Source: a virus (taxonomy: Duplodnaviria > Caudoviricetes). Taken from it: DNA of 64,000 bases. Of this stretch, positions 19,261 through 45,112 are shown piece by piece. Position 1 is the stretch's first letter. Every line of letters begins with the position of its first letter. A model generated the notes under the pieces. It was not told the DNA's origin. It made no database searches and saw only the letters and a program-made list of their open reading frames with translations. A program made the translations under genes and the position numbers. The DNA lies in IMG/VR virus record IMGVR_UViG_2974528084_000001, positions 1-64,000 of that record; one strand, 5' to 3'.

Positions 19261-19334
19261 TGATCCATAGCTCAATTCGGCAGAGCGCCCGACTGTTAAT
19301 CGGGTGGTTGTAGGTTCAAGTCCTACTGGGTCAG
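19261..19334 (+). tRNA. trnN: tRNA-Asn(GTT), CCA not encoded
   Basis: Cloverleaf: acceptor TGATCCA/TGGGTCA, D-arm GCTC/GAGC, anticodon arm CCCGA-CTGTTAA-TCGGG, T-arm GTAGG-TTCAAGT-CCTAC. Confidence 0.93.
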
Positions 19335-19374
19335 CGCAGTACAGATGTCAACTAAGACCAGTGAAAGGGTCACC

Positions 19375-19968
19375 ATGACACACGCAGGAATCCCGACCGC
19401 CACGCAGGACACCAGCGACTTCGACGGTCGCCCCGAGGTGGAGCGCGCCAATGCGGCAGCCGTCGCCGCCGGGGAGAAGATCGAGGAGAAGCAGTTCGTC
19501 GATTACTTCGCCGCGCCCCTTCCGCAGCGCTGGTACCTGCCCGATGGCGTCCAGTACTTCGAGTTCCAGGAACTCCGCGAGGGTGGCAAGTCGGCTTACG
19601 AGAAGCTGACCAACAAGGACATCCGCGTCCAGCGCTCCACCGGCGACGCGCGCCTGTCGGTCGATCCGGCGATCCAGCGCCAGTCACTGATCCGCCTGTC
19701 GGTCACCGATGTGTACCTCCTACAGAAGGACTCGGGCGGGCAGCCGCAGCCCATGCCCTTCAACAAGGAGCGACCCGGCAAGTTCTGGGAGAACCTGTTC
19801 ACGTTCTTCCCCGCCGCCCTCATCGACAAGCTCCACCGCGAGATCGTCGACATCAACGCCTGGCTCGCCGCCGACGACGATGTCGATGCACTCAAGGAGG
19901 AGCGCGAGCGTCTCGATGAGCGCATCGCCAAGGCCGAAGAGGAGCAGGCAAAAAAGCTCTCCTTGTAG
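19375..19968 (+). CDS. tail assembly chaperone (G-like)
   Basis: Between major tail and tape measure; ends just after slippery A_AAA_AAG. Confidence 0.85.
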   Translation: MTHAGIPTATQDTSDFDGRPEVERANAAAVAAGEKIEEKQFVDYFAAPLPQRWYLPDGVQYFEFQELREGGKSAYEKLTNKDIRVQRSTGDARLSVDPAIQRQSLIRLSVTDVYLLQKDSGGQPQPMPFNKERPGKFWENLFTFFPAALIDKLHREIVDINAWLAADDDVDALKEERERLDERIAKAEEEQAKKLSL

Positions 19969-20348: not shown

Positions 20349-23300
20349 TTGAACACGACTGCGGCGAATATCCTCGTCACCGCACAGGCCCGCCAGGCTC
20401 AGGCAGTTCTGGCTCGCGCACAGGCTGCGCTTCGGGGTCTGCAGTCTACCGCACAAGGTGCGAACGCTGCCCAGGCTACCGCCGCGAACGCTGCTGCAAA
20501 GCAGATCGACGCGGCCGAGGCACGCAAGGCTTCGGCGGCTGCCAAGGCATCTCTGGCAATTGAACAGGCGAATCTTCGCCAGATCAAATCTGAACAAGCG
20601 GCGTCTGTAGCCGCGGCCAGATCGGCAGCCGCCATATCTCTCTCTCAAACAAAGGCGGCCGGTGCCGCCGAAGCGTCCGCCGCCAAGCAGGCGGCAGCGG
20701 CAGCGAAGATGTCGGCGGCAATGGAGCTCTCCGCCATGAAGCAGCAGGCTGCTATGGCGCAGCTCACGCTGGTTCAAATGCGTCAGCTCGCGCAGATGGA
20801 AGCGGCCTCGGCTCGTCAGATCGCCGCCGACAACCGCGCCGCGATGTCTGCAGCCAAGTCCGCTGCGCAGCAGGCTGCCGCACGCGAGTCGCTCACCATC
20901 GCTACACTCCGTGCAGTCGCCCGCGAAGAGGCTGCATCGGCACGCAAGATCGCTGCCGATGCACGGGCTGCACTGCAGGCACAGGTGCTGGCGAATGCCG
21001 AGACCGGCAATCAGAATCGAGTAGTCACCGCCCGCCTTCGCGCCGCAGCGCAGACCGCGTCTGCCAACGCAGCGAAGATCAACTCGGACAACGGCGCTGC
21101 CATCGCTGCCGAGGTTGCCGCCAACCGCGAGATGAGGGCAGCTCGCGAGGCTTCGCTCGCCGACATGGATCGCGCCATGAAGGCGCAGGCTGCGAACGCA
21201 CGTAAGGCGGCATCGGACGCGCAGGCTGCAGTTAACGCGCAGGCAAACGCGATCAAGGAAGCTGCGGCAATGTCTGTCGCCGACACCGCGCGCATCAAGA
21301 GTGCCGCAGTAGCCGCAGCCGAGAACGCACGTAAGATTGCATCAGACGCCGCCGTGGCAAACACGGCGGCTATGACCGCTGGCCGCGAGTCGGTTGCGAA
21401 CGCGCAGGCCGCTGCATCCGCCCGCATCGGCGCGCAGCAGAAGGTTGTCGCTGACGCACAGGCCAACGCCTCGCGAATGAATGCAGCAGCCGTTGCCGCC
21501 GCCGAGGCTTCGAAGATCGCTGCCGCCGAGGCGCGCGCCGCCGCCGCAGCCGAGAAGGCTGCTATCCAGATCACCGCCGCCAAGCAGCGCGAGATCGCAG
21601 CGAACTCTGCGGCTACCGCATCCAACCGCTCCTGGTCGGCGAGCATGACGGCCTCCGGTTCTCGTATGCAGTGGATCGGTCGCCAGCTGTCGCAGAACTT
21701 CACGGCACCGATGCTGCTCGCTACGGGCATTGGCGTCAAGTTCGGGCTGGACATGGAGAAGTCCATGACCCGGCTCGAGAAGGTGTACGCCGACCAGGCG
21801 CTCATCCGCGAGGCGGAAGCCAAGGGGATCAACCTCGTCAAGAATGAGACCGAGGCTCTCGAGAAGGCGTTCATTGCACTCTCGAACAAGTACGGAGTGC
21901 AGGCCGACGAGGTTGCCAACGTCGCTGCCGAGTGGGCTGCGGCTGGCGCATCGGGCAAGGCGCTGGCAACCCAGACTGACCTGACAATGAAGACGATGGT
22001 CCTTGGTGAGATGGATGCCGAGGAAGCCACCAAGGCTCTCATCGCAATTCAGGCACAGTGGGGCGCTGTCACCGAGACCAACCTGGATCAGCAGAACAAA
22101 CTCTCTCTCGGCACCTCTGGTCTAGCCAACGATCAGCTCAGCCTTACCTCGATTCTCCGACAGCTCAACGCAGTGGAGAACGAGACCGGCACCACAATGA
22201 ATGACCTCGTCGTTGCGTTCTCTCGCGCATCGGGTGTCGCTCGAAGTGCCGGCTTTGATACGGCCCACCTTGCTGCCGCCGTTGCTGCACTCGTTCCCGC
22301 CGCAGGCAGTGCGGCCGAAGCAGGTAACGCACTCAAGACAATCATCAGCCGTACTCTGACGCCTACTCGTGAGGCTTCTCAGATCATGGAGCTGATGCAG
22401 ATACAGACCGAAAAGGCCGCATGGCAGAGCATGAACGCTGGCCAGCGTCTCGAGGAACTGGCTAAGCGATTCGGCACATTGACCGGCGCACAGAAGGCGC
22501 AGGTTGCTGCGTCTCTCGGTTCGCGCTACCAGGTTAACAAGCTCGAGGTTCTGTTCTCCTCGATCGCAAACAAGGCCGGCTACTACCACAAGGCTTTGGA
22601 GAAGCTCGCCAACGAAGCCGACGTGGTGAAGATCGCCGAGGACGAGCTCAACACCGTCCTCGAGTCGCAGCCTCAGATGCTCAAGCAGGCTGGCGTCATC
22701 ATTCAGAATAGTCTCATGAAGACTATGGTTCCTCTGATTCCGGTTGTCATTCAGATAACCCAGTGGATCGGCAAGGCGTTTGATGCCTTTGCTAATCTGC
22801 CGACCGGCGTGCGAACCACCCTTATTGGACTCGGACTGTTCCTTGCGACAGTCGGTCCCATCATCATCTTCCTGGGAATCTTTAAGCTGGCACTCGGTCA
22901 GCTCACTCCAGTGTTCTTGATGCTCGCTCGGGCGATGCTGTTCCCAATCACTATCTTCGGCAAGTTCGGCGCATTGCTGCTGAAACCGATAATGGGTCTC
23001 GCGAAGCTGCGCGCTGCACTTGCACTGACTGCGCGTGCGTTTGCCCTGATCCCAGCCGCAGCCGTACTCATGACGCGGATCGTTTCGTTCGCCCTCATGG
23101 GAATGCAGGCCACAGTCGTAGTCGGCATGGCGGGACTGCGTGCATCATGGACTGCAGCCTGGGTCGCAATGGTCGCAGTCCAGACTGTATCTGGCGTCGC
23201 AATGACCACGACCCAGAAGGTCATGTTCATGGTGATGCTCACCGCACAGAAAGTGTGGGCTGGAGCATCACTACTCATTCAGCGTGCGTGGGCTACCGCC

Positions 23301-26300
23301 AGTGTTGCAGTACATGCAGCCTGGGGCGCAGCCGCAGCGATGGTCACTGCAGTCGGGCAGGCTATCATGCTCGCCCGCCAGCGCGCCTGGGCGGCGGCAT
23401 GGCTTGCGATAACTGTCGGGTGGGCCACCGCTAGCCTCCTGCTTCAGAAGACCTGGGCCGCAGCCTCGATCCTGCTGTCCGGCGCTTACTGGAAGCGCAT
23501 GTTCGCGATCTTCGCGGCAGGTAACAAGGGTCTGCTTGCAATACTTGCAGCGGGTGGCAAGGCGATCGTCGCGCTATTCTCTTCGCCCTGGGCTATTGCG
23601 ATTGCAATTGTCATCGGACTTATCGTCATGTTCCGTGAGCAGATTGCTCAGGCGTGGAACAACGTCGTCAATTACTTCAGGAACATTCCGAAGGAAACTT
23701 CGGCAGCCCTGTCGCCGCTGACAAACATCTTTGTTCGGGCGCGCAACGCTGTTGTTGGTGCGTTCAACTCCCTGCCTGAGGGTGTCAAGGGTGCACTGCT
23801 CAAGGTGGTTGCGATCGTTCGCGCAGCCGCTATGAAGGTGTACGAACTCTTCAGCTACCTCAACCCGTTCGCGCGTCACTCGCCTTCGCTGGTGGAGAAT
23901 GTCACGAACGGCATGGCTGTCGTCAACGCTCAGTTTGCCAACGCGTCTCGCAACGCACAGAAGCATGTCGGGCAGCTGCACAAGTCGATCAACAAGTTGC
24001 AGAGTCTTTCCGCGCCCATGACTGCGCAGAACGACAAGGCGAAGGACGACGAGTTCCGTCAGACTGCAACCAAGGCGGGCGCGGCCAGTTCACTGCCTGC
24101 GTACGACGCACTCAACGCTGATGTCAAGGCAGCGAAGAGTTACATGGACCAGCTCAACAAGTCCATGGAAGCTCACGAGGCGCAGCTGAAGAACATCAAG
24201 GCTGGCGTCGAGGCGTACGACGCCGCTATCGAGCAGATGAACTCTGCTCTCGAGGTCACCAAGGCTATCCAGTCGGACGTGAACCGCGCCCTGGATGGAG
24301 CGAAGGCTCGGTTCGACCGCTACTCCAACGCGCAGATCAAGGGTACGCGCGCTGCTGAAGATGCCATCTTCGATAACGAGATGGCACAGAAGCGGCTGCA
24401 GCTGCAGATCGCGAAGATGGAGGAAGAGGCTGGCACTGTTGACAGTGTCACCGACTCGTATTCAAAGCTGCAGGGCGAGATCGAATCGCTGACCGCCAAG
24501 CAGACTGAACTTCGCAAGGCTGGCGCAGGGTCGGACGTGCTCGGCACGTACGACAAGATGATTGCCGACCTGAAGAGTCAGCAGTCGGGACTGATGACCG
24601 GCGGTACCGACAGTCCAGCCGGCAAGATAGCTGCACTCAACACATCGCTTCAGGCTCTGCAGAAGCAAGCGGACATCATGGACCTCGAGAAGTCCTTGAA
24701 GTTCGATTCACTCAATCGGAAGATTGAGCAGTTCAGCAGCAATGTTGAAGAGATGCCGTACGGTCAGATCATGTCTGGCATGGACTCTTCGCGCACCTCG
24801 ATCAATGCATTGCAGTACTCGTATGACCAGCTCGACATGGTCATGGCGGGGCAGCAGGCTCGCATCGACGCCACCCAGGCCCAGCGCGACGCACTGCAGC
24901 AGACCTACGACTCCGAGGCTAAGCGACTCGAGACCGTTCGTGCTAAGTACGAAGAGGTAGAGCAGGCCGTTCGCAGCGGCGAGGAAGCTCTCGAATCATT
25001 CTCGTCGGCATCCGAAGAGGTTGTGCGACGCCAGGAAGAAGCTGCGCGTGCCGCGGAAGAGGCAAGCAAGAAGCTCAAGAAGAAGAAGGGCGGCGGCGCT
25101 GGTAGCGGAGACGAGCTCACCCCTGGCGCTCAGAACTTCATCGACGGCGCGGCGGGAGACTTCGAGACCTTCGGTGGCACCGACACGATCGGTCGCGAGG
25201 GTGCTGGCCTGGATCAGTCTTCACAGATCGACGAGTTCACCAAGGGGCTGACCGACGACCTCGAGAAGCAGCTCGGTGGGCTCAACCCGTTCTCGGGATT
25301 GAAGAACGCTTGGAACCGAACCGTCAACTGGTTCAAGGGTATGATGCCTGGGTTCGGCGACATCTTCAAGAACGTCGGCAATGGTATCGGTTCTGCATTC
25401 TCGTCCGACAAGAACGAGAACGTCAAGCGCTTTGGTGATACCATATCAAAGGGTGTCGAGTCTCTTCGTAACATCTGGGGCTGGATTCAGAAGGTCGGCC
25501 AGATCATAGGTAAGCTGTTCGGGCCTGATCTGCAGTCTACCATGCAGGGCCTCGGTGACGGATTCAAGACCGTCATGGACAAGATCAGTGGCCCACTGTC
25601 TGAGCTCGGCAAGACTGTTATGCCGTTCTTACAGACTGCGTTCACTCATCTCATGCCGGTGATCGCACTGTTCGTTGGTGCACTTGAGGTTGTCTGGGAA
25701 GTTATCAACGGGGCTATCGGTCCGGTATTCAGCTGGCTTGGCGACATCATTGGCGCGGTTATCACCGTAATCACTGGAATAATGAAGGTCTTCATGGGAC
25801 TCATGAAGGTCATCCAGGGCGTGGTTATGGTTGTGGTGAATATACTCAAGGGTATATTCACCTTCATCAAGGGACTGTTCTCCCTCAAGTTTGACTTGTC
25901 AGGGTTCGGCGGAATTGGTGAAGCTCTCAAAAAGATCTTCGGCGGGTTCGGAGACATGTTCGGCGGCATCGTCGACATCGTCAAGGGAATCTTTGTTGCC
26001 ATCTGGAGTACGATCAAGAACTCTGTCAAGCTGATCTGGAATGTAGTCTGGGGTCTCGTCAAGGGTATCATCGACTTCTTTAAGACCTTGTGGGATGTCC
26101 TCGTCGGACACTCGATCGTGCCCGATACGATCAACTCGATCATTGACTGGTTCAAGGAGCTGCCCGGCAAGCTGCCCGGCATGGTGTGGGGTCTCATCAC
26201 CTCGCTCATTGGCTTCTTCCTGAAGATGCCGATCATGATTGGCCAGGCGCTGCTCAAGCTCGGCGGGTTCCTGTTCGGAGCGTTCACGTCTGCAATGGCG

Positions 26301-29300
26301 TGGCTTCTGCCGAAGCTTCCGGGGTTCATCTGGAATATCGTCAAGTTCTTCGCGACCTTGCCGTTCAAGATCATCGGCGCACTCGTTGGGTTCGGCGCGA
26401 AGCTCCTCGGCTGGCTCGGTCAGGCCATCGCCTGGCTGGTGCCCCAGCTCCCAGGCATCGTCTGGGACATCATCACCTTCTTCGCAACGCTCCCGTTCAA
26501 GATCATTGGAGCACTGCTCGGGTTCGGCGCAAAGCTGTTCGAGTGGGCTAAGAACGCATTCATCTGGCTCGCACAGAACTTGCCTGGTGTGATCGGCAAC
26601 GTAATCAGCTTCTTCGCTGGCCTGCCAGGGAAGCTGATCGGAGCACTCCTTGGACTCGGCTCGAAGCTGTTCGAGTGGGCGAAGAATGGGTTCATCTGGC
26701 TAGCTCAGAACCTGCCGAATGCCATCGGCGCAGTGCTTGACTTCGCCAAGGAGTTCCCCGGTCGAGTCATCCGAGGGTTTGGCAAGTGGGGTTCCTTCAT
26801 CTGGGAGTGGATGAAGAAGGGCTGGGACTTCCTGGTCAACGAGATGCCAGGTATCGTCGCTGGATTCCTGAAGTGGATCGGCGGCATTCCCGGAATGCTG
26901 CTCGGCAAGCTGGGTGACGGCGCCAAGGTGCTGTACGACTACGGCAAGGACATGATCCAGGGCCTGATGAATGGCACCGCGGGTCTGCTCAAGAAGCTCG
27001 GCGACTGGTTCCTCGACAAGATTCCAGGCTGGATCAAGACGCCGTTCAAGAAGGCGCTCGGCATCGCATCGCCTTCGAAGGTCTTCGCTGGCTACGGCGT
27101 GAACATCGGCGAAGGTCTCGTCAAGGGCATTGGTAGCATGGAGGGCCAGGTCGAGCAAGCCTCGATCGCAATGGCTGCCGCAGCCGACAAGGGCGAAGTC
27201 GGAGGCATGGCTATCTCGGCCGTTGCTGACACTTCATCGGTGGGTGGCTCCGTGTCCGCACTAGGGGACGCCGTTGCAGCATCCGGGCCGGTGGCGGTCG
27301 ATACGGCGGCGGAACCGACCGCCGACATCCAACCGATGCTCGACGCAGCCGAAGCAGCGTTCGACGCTTTCGATGCATCTATGCAGACGAAGATGGCAGC
27401 CTTCACTGCCGCAGTGACTCTTATGTTCGCTGCAATGGTGACGGGCATTTTGTCGTCCCTCGATCAGGTTACGATCGGAAGCGGTACCTCGTTTGCCGCA
27501 ATGCAGGCGACTGTCGTCGGAATCGTGACCGCGATGGTGGCAGCTGTTCAGGCGCAGCTCGCGCTACTGATCAGCCACGTTACTCAGTTCGGACTTGCAT
27601 TCACTGCGGCGTGGGCTGAAGCTTGGAACGCATGGAAGTCCGAGACCAGCCTCGGCGTCGATCACACTCTGTCCGAGTGGGAACGCATGGCGCAGGGTAT
27701 GCGCGACATCTTCGACGGCGGCATCGCGCCGATCTTTGAAGACATGGCAAAGATGTACACCACCCTGGAGGGTGCAACTAAGACGACCGTCGATAACGTC
27801 GGTACGACTTGGGCTGACATCGAACCCAAGACAAAGCGCCCCGCCGGTATCGTCATTAACGAGGTCTACAACAACGGCCTGCGCGGAGCGTGGAACAAGT
27901 TCAACAGCTTCCTTGGTGTCGCAGAACTCCCGGCGTTCACCGTCGCATACGCAACAGGTGGTCCCGTCCACGGACCCGGCACCGAGACCTCGGACAGCAT
28001 TTACGCGAAGCTGTCGCGCGGTGAGCACGTCATTACCGCCGCCGAGGTTCGAGGCGCGGGCGGACACCAGGCCATCATGGCGCAGCGTCAGGTGTGGGCC
28101 GGACGTAAGCGGATGCAGGGTGTGGATCAAAGTATGCCAGCATTCGCTCGCGGCGGTCCGGTCGACCCGAAGGCTCCGCCGTGGCCCGGTGAGTCGAATC
28201 TGAAGCCTGCGGCTATTCTGGCTCGACGCAACATCCACAAGTACTGGCCGATGATCGGCGAGATCGGCGGCTACCGCCCGAGTGACCCGTATCCAGACCA
28301 TCCGTCGGGCCTTGCGCTCGACGTCATGGTCGGAGTCGGCAACCCGGTTGGCGACGAGGTCAACGACTGGCTCCACAGGAACATGGTTCCGCTGGCGCTG
28401 AACTACACCATCTGGAAGCAGTTCTACAAGCCAGCCGGTGGTGGCGGTAACCTCATGGGCGACCGAGGCGACCCGACGCAGAACCACATGGATCACGTGC
28501 ACGCCTTGTTCAACAACAACGGCGTTCCCGGTATCACGACTGGTGGTATCGGTGGTTCGAGTGGTGGCGCTCCTATCGACTACAAGAAGATAGTCCAGGA
28601 GTCCTTTAAGGCGGACATGGACGAGGTTCGCAAGAACCTCCCGGCTATCCCCGGCGGCATCGGCCAGTGGCCGAAGATCAGCGCCGATGTAGCCGAGAAG
28701 ATGGCGCTGAAGAAGCTCCTCCCGCTCGCGGAGAAGATGAGCATCTCCAGCGGGTCGGCTGCGTCCGCCTGGGCGGGAGCGCCTGACGCCTCCGTTGTGA
28801 CTAAGGTCAAGGAGGCGATGAAGACTTATGGCTGGGACCAGGGCGCTGAATGGGAAGCACTCAACCAGCTGATCGGCCACGAGTCTTCGTGGAACCCGAA
28901 CGCGCAGAACCCGAGTTCTACCGCGTACGGTCTGTTCCAGTTCCTCGATTCTACCTGGGCAAGCGTCGGCGGTTCCAAGACCAGCGACCCCTACCAGCAG
29001 GCAATCTACGGCGGACGCTACATTAAGAACCGCTACGGCTCGCCGTCTGCAGCGTGGGCATTCTGGCAGAACCCGCAGCCGAATCCTTATGGTGGCAACT
29101 GGTACGACAATGGTGGAGTTCTTCCGCCCGGGCTCACGCTGGCCAACAACCAGACTGGCGGACCTGAGGCTATCCTCACGGCGGCTCAGTGGAGCGCGAT
29201 GTTCGACATCGCCACCAAGCCACCGCTTGACGAGGACACCATCCAGGGCGCGGTCGAGGCTGCCAACATCGCGACGGGCAACACTGACGATGCGACCACC

Positions 29301-30308
29301 GCAGCAATTATGAAGGGCATGGATGTCTGGTCCGCGGCCTGGACGCCAGCGATGGTAGACTCTACCGATGCAGCTACGGCGGCGTCGGAGAAGGTTGCAG
29401 ATGCTGCCGACAAGCAGAGCTCCAGCACGGTCCTACTGAGTAAGAGCCTGGGCAAGTACGATCAGCAGATCGCATCGCTGTCTAAGGTGCTCACGGCGTT
29501 CTCGAACAGTGCACAGCAGTCGGTCAAGGTTACGGTCAACGTGACCAATGGCACCGCTACGACTGGCAACACCTCAACCGTCGGCACGAACGAGAAGGGT
29601 GAGCAGACCATCACGGTCGAGCAGCCCACGTTCGAGCAGTGGGCACCCACCCTGAACGCACTGGCGGACTTCTTCGACACGCTCCCGTATGCAGAACGGG
29701 ACTGGCTGGCAGACAACCCGGTCGCAGGCGAAACCGAGCAGCAGCGCAAGATGCGTCTGGCGCAGAACAACCTGACCAACTTTGCAAAGGGCGGCTACAA
29801 TGTCCTGCGCGATGTCGGCCCGGTAATGCTGCGTCACACTGCAATCATCGGCACCGCAGTCGAACGCCTGGTAAAGGAAGATGGACCGGCCTGGAGTGCA
29901 GCGCTGGCAGCTATCGCGTCGAACAACCCAGCGGGTTACGCTGTTGCCGTGATGCTAGTACTGAAGGAAGTGGCAACCTTGCTACCCTTGATCCTAGCTG
30001 CCATCATGGACATTGTGCCCGCGTTGATCCGTGCTATCGTTAGGTTCCTCACCCAGTTCATGCCGGATTCAGTGTTCGCCTATGCGGACATGGCAGCTGC
30101 CGAAGCTGCGGTTACCGAGCAGCAGGCTGGTGGAGCGGTCGCGATGGGCCAGGGTCAGCGGTACCCGACTGATGCAATGTCAACTACGAGTGGCAACGAA
30201 AGTATCACATTGAACATGTACGGAGACTTGGTCATGCCGAACGTCAGCGATGGCAGTGATGCAAACGACTTCGTCGAGCAGCTCAAGCTGTTGGCGGCGG
30301 GCTCATGA
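20349..30308 (+). CDS. tape measure protein (3319 aa) with C-terminal peptidase-like and lytic-transglycosylase-like domains
   Basis: Ala-rich helical repeats, TP901-like core, hydrophobic 40-aa repeats, DHPSGLALD...HMDHVH and HESSWNPNAQN...YGLFQF motifs. Confidence 0.95.
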   Translation: MNTTAANILVTAQARQAQAVLARAQAALRGLQSTAQGANAAQATAANAAAKQIDAAEARKASAAAKASLAIEQANLRQIKSEQAASVAAARSAAAISLSQTKAAGAAEASAAKQAAAAAKMSAAMELSAMKQQAAMAQLTLVQMRQLAQMEAASARQIAADNRAAMSAAKSAAQQAAARESLTIATLRAVAREEAASARKIAADARAALQAQVLANAETGNQNRVVTARLRAAAQTASANAAKINSDNGAAIAAEVAANREMRAAREASLADMDRAMKAQAANARKAASDAQAAVNAQANAIKEAAAMSVADTARIKSAAVAAAENARKIASDAAVANTAAMTAGRESVANAQAAASARIGAQQKVVADAQANASRMNAAAVAAAEASKIAAAEARAAAAAEKAAIQITAAKQREIAANSAATASNRSWSASMTASGSRMQWIGRQLSQNFTAPMLLATGIGVKFGLDMEKSMTRLEKVYADQALIREAEAKGINLVKNETEALEKAFIALSNKYGVQADEVANVAAEWAAAGASGKALATQTDLTMKTMVLGEMDAEEATKALIAIQAQWGAVTETNLDQQNKLSLGTSGLANDQLSLTSILRQLNAVENETGTTMNDLVVAFSRASGVARSAGFDTAHLAAAVAALVPAAGSAAEAGNALKTIISRTLTPTREASQIMELMQIQTEKAAWQSMNAGQRLEELAKRFGTLTGAQKAQVAASLGSRYQVNKLEVLFSSIANKAGYYHKALEKLANEADVVKIAEDELNTVLESQPQMLKQAGVIIQNSLMKTMVPLIPVVIQITQWIGKAFDAFANLPTGVRTTLIGLGLFLATVGPIIIFLGIFKLALGQLTPVFLMLARAMLFPITIFGKFGALLLKPIMGLAKLRAALALTARAFALIPAAAVLMTRIVSFALMGMQATVVVGMAGLRASWTAAWVAMVAVQTVSGVAMTTTQKVMFMVMLTAQKVWAGASLLIQRAWATASVAVHAAWGAAAAMVTAVGQAIMLARQRAWAAAWLAITVGWATASLLLQKTWAAASILLSGAYWKRMFAIFAAGNKGLLAILAAGGKAIVALFSSPWAIAIAIVIGLIVMFREQIAQAWNNVVNYFRNIPKETSAALSPLTNIFVRARNAVVGAFNSLPEGVKGALLKVVAIVRAAAMKVYELFSYLNPFARHSPSLVENVTNGMAVVNAQFANASRNAQKHVGQLHKSINKLQSLSAPMTAQNDKAKDDEFRQTATKAGAASSLPAYDALNADVKAAKSYMDQLNKSMEAHEAQLKNIKAGVEAYDAAIEQMNSALEVTKAIQSDVNRALDGAKARFDRYSNAQIKGTRAAEDAIFDNEMAQKRLQLQIAKMEEEAGTVDSVTDSYSKLQGEIESLTAKQTELRKAGAGSDVLGTYDKMIADLKSQQSGLMTGGTDSPAGKIAALNTSLQALQKQADIMDLEKSLKFDSLNRKIEQFSSNVEEMPYGQIMSGMDSSRTSINALQYSYDQLDMVMAGQQARIDATQAQRDALQQTYDSEAKRLETVRAKYEEVEQAVRSGEEALESFSSASEEVVRRQEEAARAAEEASKKLKKKKGGGAGSGDELTPGAQNFIDGAAGDFETFGGTDTIGREGAGLDQSSQIDEFTKGLTDDLEKQLGGLNPFSGLKNAWNRTVNWFKGMMPGFGDIFKNVGNGIGSAFSSDKNENVKRFGDTISKGVESLRNIWGWIQKVGQIIGKLFGPDLQSTMQGLGDGFKTVMDKISGPLSELGKTVMPFLQTAFTHLMPVIALFVGALEVVWEVINGAIGPVFSWLGDIIGAVITVITGIMKVFMGLMKVIQGVVMVVVNILKGIFTFIKGLFSLKFDLSGFGGIGEALKKIFGGFGDMFGGIVDIVKGIFVAIWSTIKNSVKLIWNVVWGLVKGIIDFFKTLWDVLVGHSIVPDTINSIIDWFKELPGKLPGMVWGLITSLIGFFLKMPIMIGQALLKLGGFLFGAFTSAMAWLLPKLPGFIWNIVKFFATLPFKIIGALVGFGAKLLGWLGQAIAWLVPQLPGIVWDIITFFATLPFKIIGALLGFGAKLFEWAKNAFIWLAQNLPGVIGNVISFFAGLPGKLIGALLGLGSKLFEWAKNGFIWLAQNLPNAIGAVLDFAKEFPGRVIRGFGKWGSFIWEWMKKGWDFLVNEMPGIVAGFLKWIGGIPGMLLGKLGDGAKVLYDYGKDMIQGLMNGTAGLLKKLGDWFLDKIPGWIKTPFKKALGIASPSKVFAGYGVNIGEGLVKGIGSMEGQVEQASIAMAAAADKGEVGGMAISAVADTSSVGGSVSALGDAVAASGPVAVDTAAEPTADIQPMLDAAEAAFDAFDASMQTKMAAFTAAVTLMFAAMVTGILSSLDQVTIGSGTSFAAMQATVVGIVTAMVAAVQAQLALLISHVTQFGLAFTAAWAEAWNAWKSETSLGVDHTLSEWERMAQGMRDIFDGGIAPIFEDMAKMYTTLEGATKTTVDNVGTTWADIEPKTKRPAGIVINEVYNNGLRGAWNKFNSFLGVAELPAFTVAYATGGPVHGPGTETSDSIYAKLSRGEHVITAAEVRGAGGHQAIMAQRQVWAGRKRMQGVDQSMPAFARGGPVDPKAPPWPGESNLKPAAILARRNIHKYWPMIGEIGGYRPSDPYPDHPSGLALDVMVGVGNPVGDEVNDWLHRNMVPLALNYTIWKQFYKPAGGGGNLMGDRGDPTQNHMDHVHALFNNNGVPGITTGGIGGSSGGAPIDYKKIVQESFKADMDEVRKNLPAIPGGIGQWPKISADVAEKMALKKLLPLAEKMSISSGSAASAWAGAPDASVVTKVKEAMKTYGWDQGAEWEALNQLIGHESSWNPNAQNPSSTAYGLFQFLDSTWASVGGSKTSDPYQQAIYGGRYIKNRYGSPSAAWAFWQNPQPNPYGGNWYDNGGVLPPGLTLANNQTGGPEAILTAAQWSAMFDIATKPPLDEDTIQGAVEAANIATGNTDDATTAAIMKGMDVWSAAWTPAMVDSTDAATAASEKVADAADKQSSSTVLLSKSLGKYDQQIASLSKVLTAFSNSAQQSVKVTVNVTNGTATTGNTSTVGTNEKGEQTITVEQPTFEQWAPTLNALADFFDTLPYAERDWLADNPVAGETEQQRKMRLAQNNLTNFAKGGYNVLRDVGPVMLRHTAIIGTAVERLVKEDGPAWSAALAAIASNNPAGYAVAVMLVLKEVATLLPLILAAIMDIVPALIRAIVRFLTQFMPDSVFAYADMAAAEAAVTEQQAGGAVAMGQGQRYPTDAMSTTSGNESITLNMYGDLVMPNVSDGSDANDFVEQLKLLAAGS

Positions 30309-43308: not shown

Positions 43309-44514
43309 CTACTCCTTGATGAGCCGCTGCACAATCTTTGGCTTTGGCTCGCCGATGCTCTCCTGGACGGACGATCGTAGCCTGGACTTCTGGGCTGCGT
43401 TCAGGGCGTTACCATTCAAGAGCTTGTCAATTTCACTGTTGTTGATCTTGCCAAGTGAAGCGAAGAGGTTATCCCCGATTATCTCTCGCACCGTCGCTGG
43501 ATCGTAAGACTTCCGGCGGGACGACTTGAACACGACATGGTAGTCATCCGTATCGTATTCGATCTCGTCGTTCTCCATTGCATCTTCGAGCAGCTTTTCC
43601 ATCACTTCTTCGATGGCGTACTTGATGGCCTTCTGGGCTCCCTCAAGTTCCACGTAACGCTTCGCCATCTCGTTGCGGTCGCCAGCCAGGGCCATGACCC
43701 CGCCTGCCTGTACGTTCTTCGTGAGAACGGGGCACGTAGCTTTCACTACGCAGAACTGGCATTCCGAGTTGAGCGTGCGCTTGCCGGGCACAGGCTCGGC
43801 AATGATACGCTCGGCCACCTTGCGAACGTACTTCCAGGTGGCGACGTTGTCGTCGCGGGTGAACTTCACCTCGACGGGATCGTATCGGAGCTGATCGAAG
43901 CACACCCAGACCTCGTCGGGGTTGAGCTCGAACCCCAGCTCCTTGGCGATCTCTGCCTTGGCGAGCATGATAGCCAGACCGTACAGTCGGCCTTGCGCTT
44001 TCTGTCGCAAACCCTGCGGGGTGAGATGCTGACGCCAGGTCTTGTAGTCCACCACGCGGACGATGGTCTTGCCGTTCTCCTCGAACATATCGAGACGATC
44101 GAAGATGAATGTGTACGGCACCTCGCCGATGGAGGTCTTGATGGTGACCCGAATCTTGCGCTCGACCATGAGCACCTGAACCTTGTCGAGGTCGGTGCGT
44201 GCGAACCAGCGTTCGAGCATCTCAATGCCGTCGTTGTACAGGTCGTCCTTGGCATCTGGAATGCGCATGAACTGCTTCATGAACTCTTGCTTGAAGTAAG
44301 CGACGAGTACATTCCAGTCTAGTTCCTCGCGGGTCTTGCTGATGTATACCTCGTCGACAATCCGCTCGAGTGAATCGTGCACGGCGGTGCCCAGCTTGGC
44401 TGGGTCCGAGCTACCCCCTGGGCTCGGCGTACGTTCAACCATCTCGGCGTGGTACCTGAAGGTGCAACCCTCGAACACCTGGATGGAGGATGCCGAGATG
44501 GTTCTGAGTTCCAC
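43309..44514 (-). CDS. Cas4/RecB-family PD-(D/E)xK exonuclease
   Basis: SASSI...C, GTAVH, FDRLD...VVDYKT, ECQFC...C (4 Cys); GTG start 44514. Confidence 0.85.
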   Translation of the reverse strand: MELRTISASSIQVFEGCTFRYHAEMVERTPSPGGSSDPAKLGTAVHDSLERIVDEVYISKTREELDWNVLVAYFKQEFMKQFMRIPDAKDDLYNDGIEMLERWFARTDLDKVQVLMVERKIRVTIKTSIGEVPYTFIFDRLDMFEENGKTIVRVVDYKTWRQHLTPQGLRQKAQGRLYGLAIMLAKAEIAKELGFELNPDEVWVCFDQLRYDPVEVKFTRDDNVATWKYVRKVAERIIAEPVPGKRTLNSECQFCVVKATCPVLTKNVQAGGVMALAGDRNEMAKRYVELEGAQKAIKYAIEEVMEKLLEDAMENDEIEYDTDDYHVVFKSSRRKSYDPATVREIIGDNLFASLGKINNSEIDKLLNGNALNAAQKSRLRSSVQESIGEPKPKIVQRLIKE

Positions 44515-44927
44515 TACTTGCTTCCCCTCTTCGTAGTAATGCCGCCCCATATGCCATCGGTCGAACCAGTGCGCTCGCGATAGTCGAGGCACTCGAGCTT
44601 AACGGGGCAGCTCATGCAAATCTTCTTCGCGCGATTAGCGCGGGCCGCTTGTCCCCGGCCAGGGAAGAACGCGTCTGGGTCGTGATACCCTACACAGAGG
44701 GCGCGTCGGGTCCACTCTTCGGGGACGAGACTGAAGGAGGCTTCGGGGGCGTCGGCGCCTGGGTCTCCGTACTCTTCTCCTTCTCCGCAGTCGCAAGGCT
44801 CTCCGGTTCGGTCGGGTCGAAGAGCGAGGGCTGCGCAGATTCCGTTGCACCTAAAGGGAGGCGCCCCCCGGACATCTCGAGCTCGAAAGCCGTCGTCGGC
44901 TCTTCGCCATCGAGCAGTTCGTCGGCG
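44514..44927 (-). CDS. whiB: WhiB-family transcription factor domain; no start codon upstream of the domain, reachable by -1 frameshift
   Basis: Frame missing from the track: EEWTRRALCVGYHDPDAFFP...AKKICMSCPVKLECLDY...DGIWGGITTKRGSK*; TAG overlaps the GTG of the exonuclease. Confidence 0.85.
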   Translation of the reverse strand, partial: RRRTARWRRADDGFRARDVRGAPPFRCNGICAALALRPDRTGEPCDCGEGEEYGDPGADAPEASFSLVPEEWTRRALCVGYHDPDAFFPGRGQAARANRAKKICMSCPVKLECLDYRERTGSTDGIWGGITTKRGSK

Positions 44928-45112
44928 TCAGCTTGCGCATCAGCCTTGGCCTTCTGCTCCGACTGGAATGCCGTCTGCTGTAGGTGTGCTTCGAAGGCGG
45001 TCTGCGTGGGGGCCTTGGCTCGAAAGTCTTGGAACCCTTCCTGATCCATCCCTCCGCGCACCGGGTGCAACTCGTTGGGGCCAGCGGGCATTTTGAACTG
45101 CTGTTCAGTCAC
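44690..45112 (-). CDS. hypothetical protein (140 aa), frame-0 partner of the WhiB frame
   Basis: GTG 45112 after AAGGAG; contains C_CCT_TTA (44858-44852) and QPSLF. Confidence 0.7.
   Translation of the reverse strand: MTEQQFKMPAGPNELHPVRGGMDQEGFQDFRAKAPTQTAFEAHLQQTAFQSEQKAKADAQADADELLDGEEPTTAFELEMSGGRLPLGATESAQPSLFDPTEPESLATAEKEKSTETQAPTPPKPPSVSSPKSGPDAPSV

Follow-up and report, generated by a model that had tools for sequence, protein, structure and literature searches.

A start-less WhiB domain in actinobacteriophages, probably expressed by −1 ribosomal frameshifting at a conserved slippery heptamer

The production of two proteins from one messenger RNA (mRNA) by a −1 frameshift has been described in several settings. 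In the tail assembly chaperones G/GT of lambda and the actinophages, a heptamer of the form X_XXY_YYZ lies late in a short gene and leads into a −1-frame extension that has no start of its own, the two products share an N-terminus, and the position of the site is conserved. In the IS3-family OrfA/OrfAB pairs (IS911, IS150) and in E. coli dnaX (tau/gamma), a −1 shift sets the ratio of a short protein to a domain-bearing protein on the same N-terminal part, using A_AAA_AAG with an upstream Shine–Dalgarno sequence and a downstream hairpin or pseudoknot, and in E. coli copA a −1 frameshift at C_CCA_AAG truncates the protein into the small chaperone CopA(Z). Here we describe a further candidate, found in a 64,000-nucleotide (nt) stretch of viral DNA (Caudoviricetes; positions 1 to 64,000 of IMG/VR virus record IMGVR_UViG_2974528084_000001) that is called the window below and whose best DNA matches are the Gordonia phages Diabla and RoyalG (93–94% identity; Montyvirus type). 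A short open reading frame (ORF) of the window, ORF0, carries an in-phase CCCTTTA heptamer and overlaps a frame that encodes a WhiB domain and lacks a start codon. We consider it highly probable, on comparative sequence evidence, that this domain is expressed through a −1 ribosomal frameshift at the heptamer, giving two proteins from one mRNA.

The domain in question belongs to the WhiB-like (Wbl) regulators, which include M. tuberculosis WhiB1-7, Streptomyces WhiB and the WhiB of phage TM4. Known Wbl proteins are free-standing ORFs of about 60–130 residues with their own start, and the WhiB frame described here resembles them in its four Cys, its GIWGG sequence and its basic tail.

Architecture of the locus

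The initial annotation of the window reported a complete WhiB domain in a minus-strand frame open from 44927 to TAG 44514, and profile comparison bears this out: the frame, which is −1 relative to ORF0, matches Pfam PF02467 (Whib) with an E value of 2.6e-16 and 60.3 bits (cut-off 23.6) over profile positions 1–60 of 65. The iron–sulfur (Fe–S) ligand pattern of Wbl proteins, C-Xn-C-X2-C-X5-C, is present as Cys55, Cys81, Cys84 and Cys90 of the −1-frame part and is invariant in all lineages. These Cys residues and the GIWGG sequence align with solved WhiB, WhiB1, WhiB3, WhiB4 and WhiB7 chains (Streptomyces WhiB chain 8dy7_H for the Cys), and the G[VI]WGG turn and basic C-terminal tail of the family are both found, as GIWGG followed by ITTKRGSK. 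The features of the locus are as follows, with coordinates given here and below as window positions on the minus strand unless marked (+).

44690..45112, minus strand: ORF0, the zero-frame gene, from GTG 45112 to TAG 44692-44690, 140 residues
44858-44852, minus strand: slippery heptamer C_CCT_TTA, the proposed −1 slip site, read in ORF0 as codons CTC CCT TTA, which is the X_XXY_YYZ phase; CCU would occupy the P site and UUA the A site
44514..44852, minus strand: the portion of the trans-frame coding sequence that is read in the −1 frame; it begins with the A at 44852, read a second time, and extends for 112 codons to 44517, before TAG 44516-44514
44778..44849, minus strand: Cys-rich linker in the −1 frame, with Cys-x-Gly-x-Cys at 44849-44835 and Cys-x-Cys-Gly-Glu-Gly at 44795-44778
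44529..44714, minus strand: WhiB (Wbl) domain, four Cys as C-x25-C-x2-C-x5-C, plus GIWGG
44613..44615, minus strand: internal ATG, the first of the −1 frame, between Cys2 and Cys3
44864..44869, minus strand: G6 run within Gly-Gly codons, 5 nt 5' of the heptamer, Shine–Dalgarno-like
44512..44516, minus strand: TAGTG overlap, in which the last base of the WhiB-frame stop (TAG 44516-44514) is also the first base of the GTG of the next gene
43309-44514, minus strand: Cas4-family exonuclease gene with a GTG start; this start is annotated in relatives

As first described, the WhiB frame is without a usable start. Not one ATG, GTG, TTG or CTG precedes the first WhiB Cys in the window, where the sole near-cognate codon is one ATC, and ATG 44615 falls between Cys2 and Cys3. 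ORF0 is preceded by a ribosome-binding site, AAGGAG, at 6 nt spacing from GTG 45112, and the position of its start agrees with that of the ATG starts in relatives. Codons 1–87 of ORF0 (45112-44852) are common to both products. The location and phase of CCCTTTA in the GTG 45112 gene are read directly from the sequence, and a slip there would generate join(45112..44852, 44852..44514), or 87 + 112 = 199 codons, matching the product of about 199 residues with a second four-Cys cluster that had been predicted. The additional cluster, RCNGIC...CDC, brings four Cys beyond those of WhiB, and this linker module probably constitutes a second metal site. At its other end, the WhiB frame runs into the Cas4-family gene through the TAGTG overlap, an arrangement typical of translationally coupled genes and one that fits translation of the WhiB frame.

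The mere presence of the heptamer is not unusual (CCCTTTA occurs once in the 64 kb, both strands considered, and shuffles expect 2.2); its phase, its placement at the sole entry point of the −1 frame and its invariance in relatives are beyond chance. The rarity of its A-site codon, also noted at the outset, holds: TTA is the rarest Leu codon in the long ORFs of the window (19 of 2113 Leu codons, 0.9%), and CCT makes up 13% of Pro codons.

Conservation and selection across lineages

Alignment of related phages had been proposed as a check on the frameshift reading, and we assembled for it a close-family set of 20 loci: the window, 11 GenBank phages (from Montyvirus, Woesvirus, Tinduovirus with host Tsukamurella, Getseptimavirus and Demosthenesvirus), three further Demosthenesvirus phages, and five metagenomic contigs found via ORF0 homologues at 56–67% identity. 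The in-phase CCCTTTA and the two-frame overlap are kept in all 20, over a range of ORF0 protein identity of 52–96%, and in all 20 the −1 frame is continuous, running from Pro-Phe-Arg-Cys-x-Gly-x-Cys through Cys-x-Cys-Gly-Glu-Gly into WhiB. A tblastn search with the 114-residue −1 part matched 131 phage records, 106 of which hold at least 80% of the segment in one frame.

A different heptamer, C_CCA_AAA, stands in phase at the same spot in six phages that are less closely related and share the plan of ORF0, −1-frame linker and WhiB: ReqiDocB7 and Mbo2 of Rhodococcus, and Gmala1, Orchid, Jumbo and GMA3 of Gordonia. Their −1 frame reads Pro-Lys-Arg-Leu-x-Cys-x-Gly-x-Cys, then Cys-x-Cys-Gly-Glu-Gly, then WhiB. 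Over both heptamer classes the invariant positions are Pro1, Arg3, the four linker Cys, Gly-Glu-Gly and the four WhiB Cys, and the heptamer site together with the overlap is kept in 26/26 loci, which come from metagenomes and about 11 genera or groups of phages. A frameshift site under selection would be expected to show this pattern, with two different canonical heptamers occupying a single homologous position.

The relatives also delimit where the −1 frame can be entered. In three loci (L014, L016 and L018) only 18 nt separate its upstream stop from the heptamer, and in Gmala1 and Orchid a TGA stands directly before the heptamer, such that entry into the −1 frame is possible there only at the heptamer itself. 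Of 17 loci, 15 have no ATG, GTG or TTG before Cys1 in this frame, and the Met of the internal ATG 44615 is missing in Hollow and in L012. The G6 run upstream of the heptamer is replaced in relatives by GGTGGC, GGAGGC, GGGGGC or GGTGGT; the initial annotation had placed it correctly, 5 nt upstream. As the run is not conserved, it can be dismissed both as an indel artefact and as a signal on which the shift depends.

Selection was assessed by the ratio of nonsynonymous to synonymous change (pN/pS) in each frame, calculated from 12 representative sequences. Upstream of the heptamer, the ratio is 0.36 in frame 0 and 1.4–1.9 in the off frames; in the WhiB domain it is 0.23 in frame −1 and 1.6–1.9 in the off frames. 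The coding signal therefore changes frame at the heptamer: purifying selection acts on frame 0 before it and on frame −1 after it. Values in the linker are 0.98 for frame 0, 0.72 for frame −1 and 0.98 for the other frame, and those in the first 14 codons after the heptamer are 0.72, 0.55 and 1.11, respectively. Synonymous divergence drops over these 14 codons, to about 0.3 from about 0.68, and frame 0 and frame −1 both look constrained, which suggests either an RNA element or a short stretch that codes in two frames. Read in the −1 frame, the codons of the linker Cys (TGC/TGT), Arg (AGG/AGA) and Gly (GGN) differ among sequences at synonymous sites and the residues stay constant; in frame 0, these substitutions do change the residue, Gly/Asp and Ala/Val being examples. 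The profile of GC content by codon position was not discriminating.

A low-coverage metagenomic contig (L020, 1755-2015) has C_CCT_TTC followed by CGC, which keeps the slipperiness and the −1-frame Arg and changes the frame-0 residues; it diverges after CxCGEG, and the contig ends without a recognisable WhiB, which may reflect an assembly fault or a lineage that lost the WhiB domain. Gordonia phage Niagara (L030, ORF0 at 601-1074) has a 21-nt tandem duplication in the overlap that repeats seven residues and leaves both frames open. A relative on a wastewater contig keeps the heptamer, with neighbouring bases that differ.

Proposed mechanism and alternatives to it

We propose that ribosomes start at GTG 45112 and read ORF0, and that a fraction of them would slip back by one base at C_CCU_UUA. 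The slip could occur in tandem, with tRNA-Pro re-pairing from CCU to CCC and tRNA-Leu from UUA to UUU; it is also possible that tRNA-Pro slips alone while the rare UUA codon awaits its tRNA. Slipped ribosomes would continue to TAG 44514 and release a protein of 199 residues, made up of the 87-residue N-terminal region of ORF0, the four-Cys linker and the complete WhiB domain; unslipped ribosomes would end at TAG 44690 and release the 140-residue ORF0 protein. The dose of the WhiB fusion would in this way be set relative to that of the ORF0 protein. The sequences show the anatomy of the locus, its conservation and the selection on the two frames; the ribosomal nature of the slip, its efficiency and the function of the fusion are inferred.

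That −1 shifting works in this host is indicated by the phage's own tail chaperone gene, which uses A_AAA_AAG:

19950 (+): A_AAA_AAG, the canonical −1 site of the tail chaperone gene, shortly before ORF 19345-19968 ends; the −1 frame adds 97 codons, to 20243

The tape measure gene (20349-30308, 3319 residues) follows just after this extension. A single tRNA-Asn(GTT) gene, at 19261-19335 (+), lies directly upstream of the tail chaperone gene, and the window has no tRNA-Leu gene.

Several observations weigh against frameshifting at the WhiB locus or complicate it. The 90 nt 3' of the heptamer fold no more stably than shuffled sequences (z −1.3 to +0.9). A candidate long-range stem at 44839-44782, which begins 12 nt downstream, is 84% paired, a level that 91 of 500 shuffles reach; it pairs codons of both Cys motifs, slid controls are 36–70% paired, and two registers are not distinguishable from controls. 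A long hairpin that RNAalifold drew from four close sequences dissolved on a wide sequence set and was discarded. The upstream GGNGG, about 7 nt from the P-site codon, varies. The U_UUA tetramer is weakly shifty in E. coli, at 1.8- to 3.6-fold over background (PMC4066793), and the efficiency of the shift may be low or may depend on host tRNA supply. Finally, an in-frame GTG or ATG lies 5–8 codons before Cys1 in Demosthenesvirus and the C_CCA_AAA lineages, where it is annotated as the start. These alternative starts have no Shine–Dalgarno sequence at working distance; a short WhiB could additionally be made from them in these lineages, which does not explain the conserved open linker.

An extension of the proposal concerns regulation. 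The slip rate could be variable and set by the wait at the A site for the rarest host tRNA, tRNA-Leu(UAA), with AAA as its counterpart in the C_CCA_AAA lineages. The amount of fusion made per ORF0 protein would in that case reflect the translational or growth state of the host and time an early-to-middle programme, with the ORF0 protein competing with the fusion. We regard this as doubtful. Sensitivity to tRNA-Leu(UAA) is weakened as a general principle by the sister lineages with C_CCA_AAA and by the one metagenomic contig with C_CCT_TTC.

Turning to explanations other than ribosomal slippage, the frame could change at the same place through realignment of RNA polymerase or through another form of recoding, such as a +2 shift or a hop. 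Sequence comparison alone cannot tell an RNA-level from a ribosome-level event. However, transcriptional slippage requires long A or T runs, whereas this site has only C3 and T3 and relatives do not keep the G6 run, and both CCCTTTA and CCCAAAA obey, in the right phase, the X_XXY_YYZ rule for re-pairing of two tRNAs. We judge a change of frame by these other means very improbable.

We find it very improbable that the WhiB protein instead arises by initiation inside the −1 frame, whether at a non-canonical codon, by reinitiation after ORF0 or at ATG 44615, with the heptamer incidental. Annotators do call a product from ATG 44615, a 33-residue 'WhiB family transcription factor' in Diabla, Jellybones, Monty and Woes, and PHROG 11832 is a 33-position profile made of such stumps. 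However, a product from this ATG would be without Cys1 and Cys2 and cannot be a Wbl protein, and its Met is not shared by all relatives, as noted above. The start is an annotation artefact, lying as it does between Cys2 and Cys3. That homologues might have an ordinary start near WhiB or a single continuous ORF had been named as a possible refutation: none is single-frame and 15 of 17 are start-less, but the GTG or ATG codons of Demosthenesvirus and the C_CCA_AAA lineages are a partial exception and the one point that favours internal initiation beyond the annotated stumps. Initiation within the −1 frame would also leave unexplained the roughly 50–70 open codons between heptamer and WhiB, with their eight invariant residues and synonymous codon variation, and the fact that a canonical heptamer always stands at the 5' edge of the −1 frame.

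A sequencing or assembly error, for which the G6 run 5 nt upstream of the heptamer would be the natural suspect, or a decaying WhiB pseudogene, we count as refuted by the comparative data: dozens of independently sequenced isolates agree, and the two-frame layout recurs in isolates sequenced since 2011 on three continents; the G run varies among relatives and the frames do not; purifying selection on the WhiB domain is strong (pN/pS 0.23); and the contig of the probable source run, which is not independent evidence, is identical at the locus at a depth of 669 and has no indel.

Predicted products, annotation and relation to known systems

By family membership, the WhiB fusion would presumably act as an Fe–S Wbl regulator on the host sigma-A holoenzyme in early or middle infection; its WhiB domain would be expected to hold a [4Fe–4S] cluster and to contact region 4 of sigma-A. 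ORF0 belongs to no Pfam family, and its N-terminal region has no relative in the PDB and no match in the Atlas. ORF0 does match PHROG 6890, and the 'endonuclease' label that it carries there and in RefSeq is unsupported: ORF0 has no Pfam family and no PDB relative, and its model is mostly unstructured. The AlphaFold2 model of ORF0 (pLDDT, the model's confidence score, 64) has three helices with the remainder unstructured, and that of the −1 part, linker plus WhiB, has a pLDDT of 42; both are too weak for a fold search. Conserved features of ORF0 are an [FY]xDFRxK motif, a Thr-Ala-Phe sequence that occurs three times and, immediately ahead of the shift site, Gly-Gly-Arg-x-Pro.

The Gly-Gly-Arg-x-Pro sequence (44859-44873) abuts the shift site and is invariant in all CCCTTTA lineages. 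It is loosely like nascent-chain arrest motifs of the Arg-Ala-Gly-Pro type, and a peptide-mediated pause might be considered as a speculative lead. In the frame-0 tail of ORF0, after the heptamer, Gln-Pro-Ser-Leu-Phe (44813-44827) resembles a beta-clamp-binding motif. Montyvirus, Woesvirus and three metagenomic lineages retain this sequence; it appears with Asp or Glu for Gln in the TIN phages and is absent in GTE7, Demosthenesvirus and L012; it falls within the 14 codons after the heptamer, for which pN/pS in frame 0 is 0.72 versus 1.11 in the control frame.

In every phage record examined, the WhiB fusion is unjoined. Where the 33-residue stump or a shortened WhiB is not called, as in RoyalG, Chelms, TIN2, TIN3, GTE7 and HayZem, WhiB is unannotated. 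Homologues of ORF0 are 116–174 residues long, without WhiB and without a Pfam domain. A homologue with the N-terminal region and WhiB in a single frame was found neither by protein search nor in genome contigs (cellular WhiBs only) or JGI metagenomes (chance motif matches only). A profile of the −1 part gave no match with E<1e-30 and none of full length among 1.84 billion representative proteins; gene callers never call the −1 ORF. One candidate, P0021, appeared to be a single-frame protein with its own Met ahead of CxCGEG and was rejected, its start being a gene-caller start inside an Orchid-type −1 frame.

The supposition that recoding of a phage WhiB is undescribed agrees with what we could find. 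Full-text literature searches gave no paper linking WhiB with frameshifting in phages; in text searches, 'WhiB' is absent from the genome announcement of Hotorobo, Woes and Monty and from the 2017 survey of Gordonia phages, and neither 'WhiB' nor 'Gordonia' occurs in the PRFect paper. As far as the searchable literature shows, the locus would be the second conserved recoding event of actinophages after the tail chaperone and the first for a WhiB-like regulator. The rules of slippery sites have hardly been measured in high-G+C actinobacteria, and the locus would offer a simple system for testing −1 frameshifting there on C_CCU_UUA and C_CCA_AAA. It also amends about a hundred phage records in public databases, which currently hold a 33-residue stump, a shortened WhiB or nothing.

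Set against the described systems, the locus is familiar in mechanism and distinct in what it encodes. The tail chaperones belong to a structural, late-gene system and are joined routinely by SEA-PHAGES annotators, whereas the WhiB locus lies in the early/replication arm, adds a transcription-factor domain and uses C_CCU_UUA or C_CCA_AAA. Compared with the IS3-family elements and dnaX, it differs in that a stimulator could not be demonstrated. With copA it shares a heptamer with CCC in the P site, the copA site being close to the C_CCA_AAA of the sister lineages, but the shift at the WhiB locus would extend the protein into a regulator domain instead of truncating it. Unlike the free-standing Wbl proteins, the WhiB fusion would carry an extra, invariant four-Cys module and an N-terminal region drawn from another frame, a new Wbl architecture and a natural pair of proteins with a common N-terminus. 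The proposed mechanism has known counterparts in tail chaperones, dnaX, IS3 OrfAB and copA; what is new is the gene family, its setting in the genome and the architecture of the protein.

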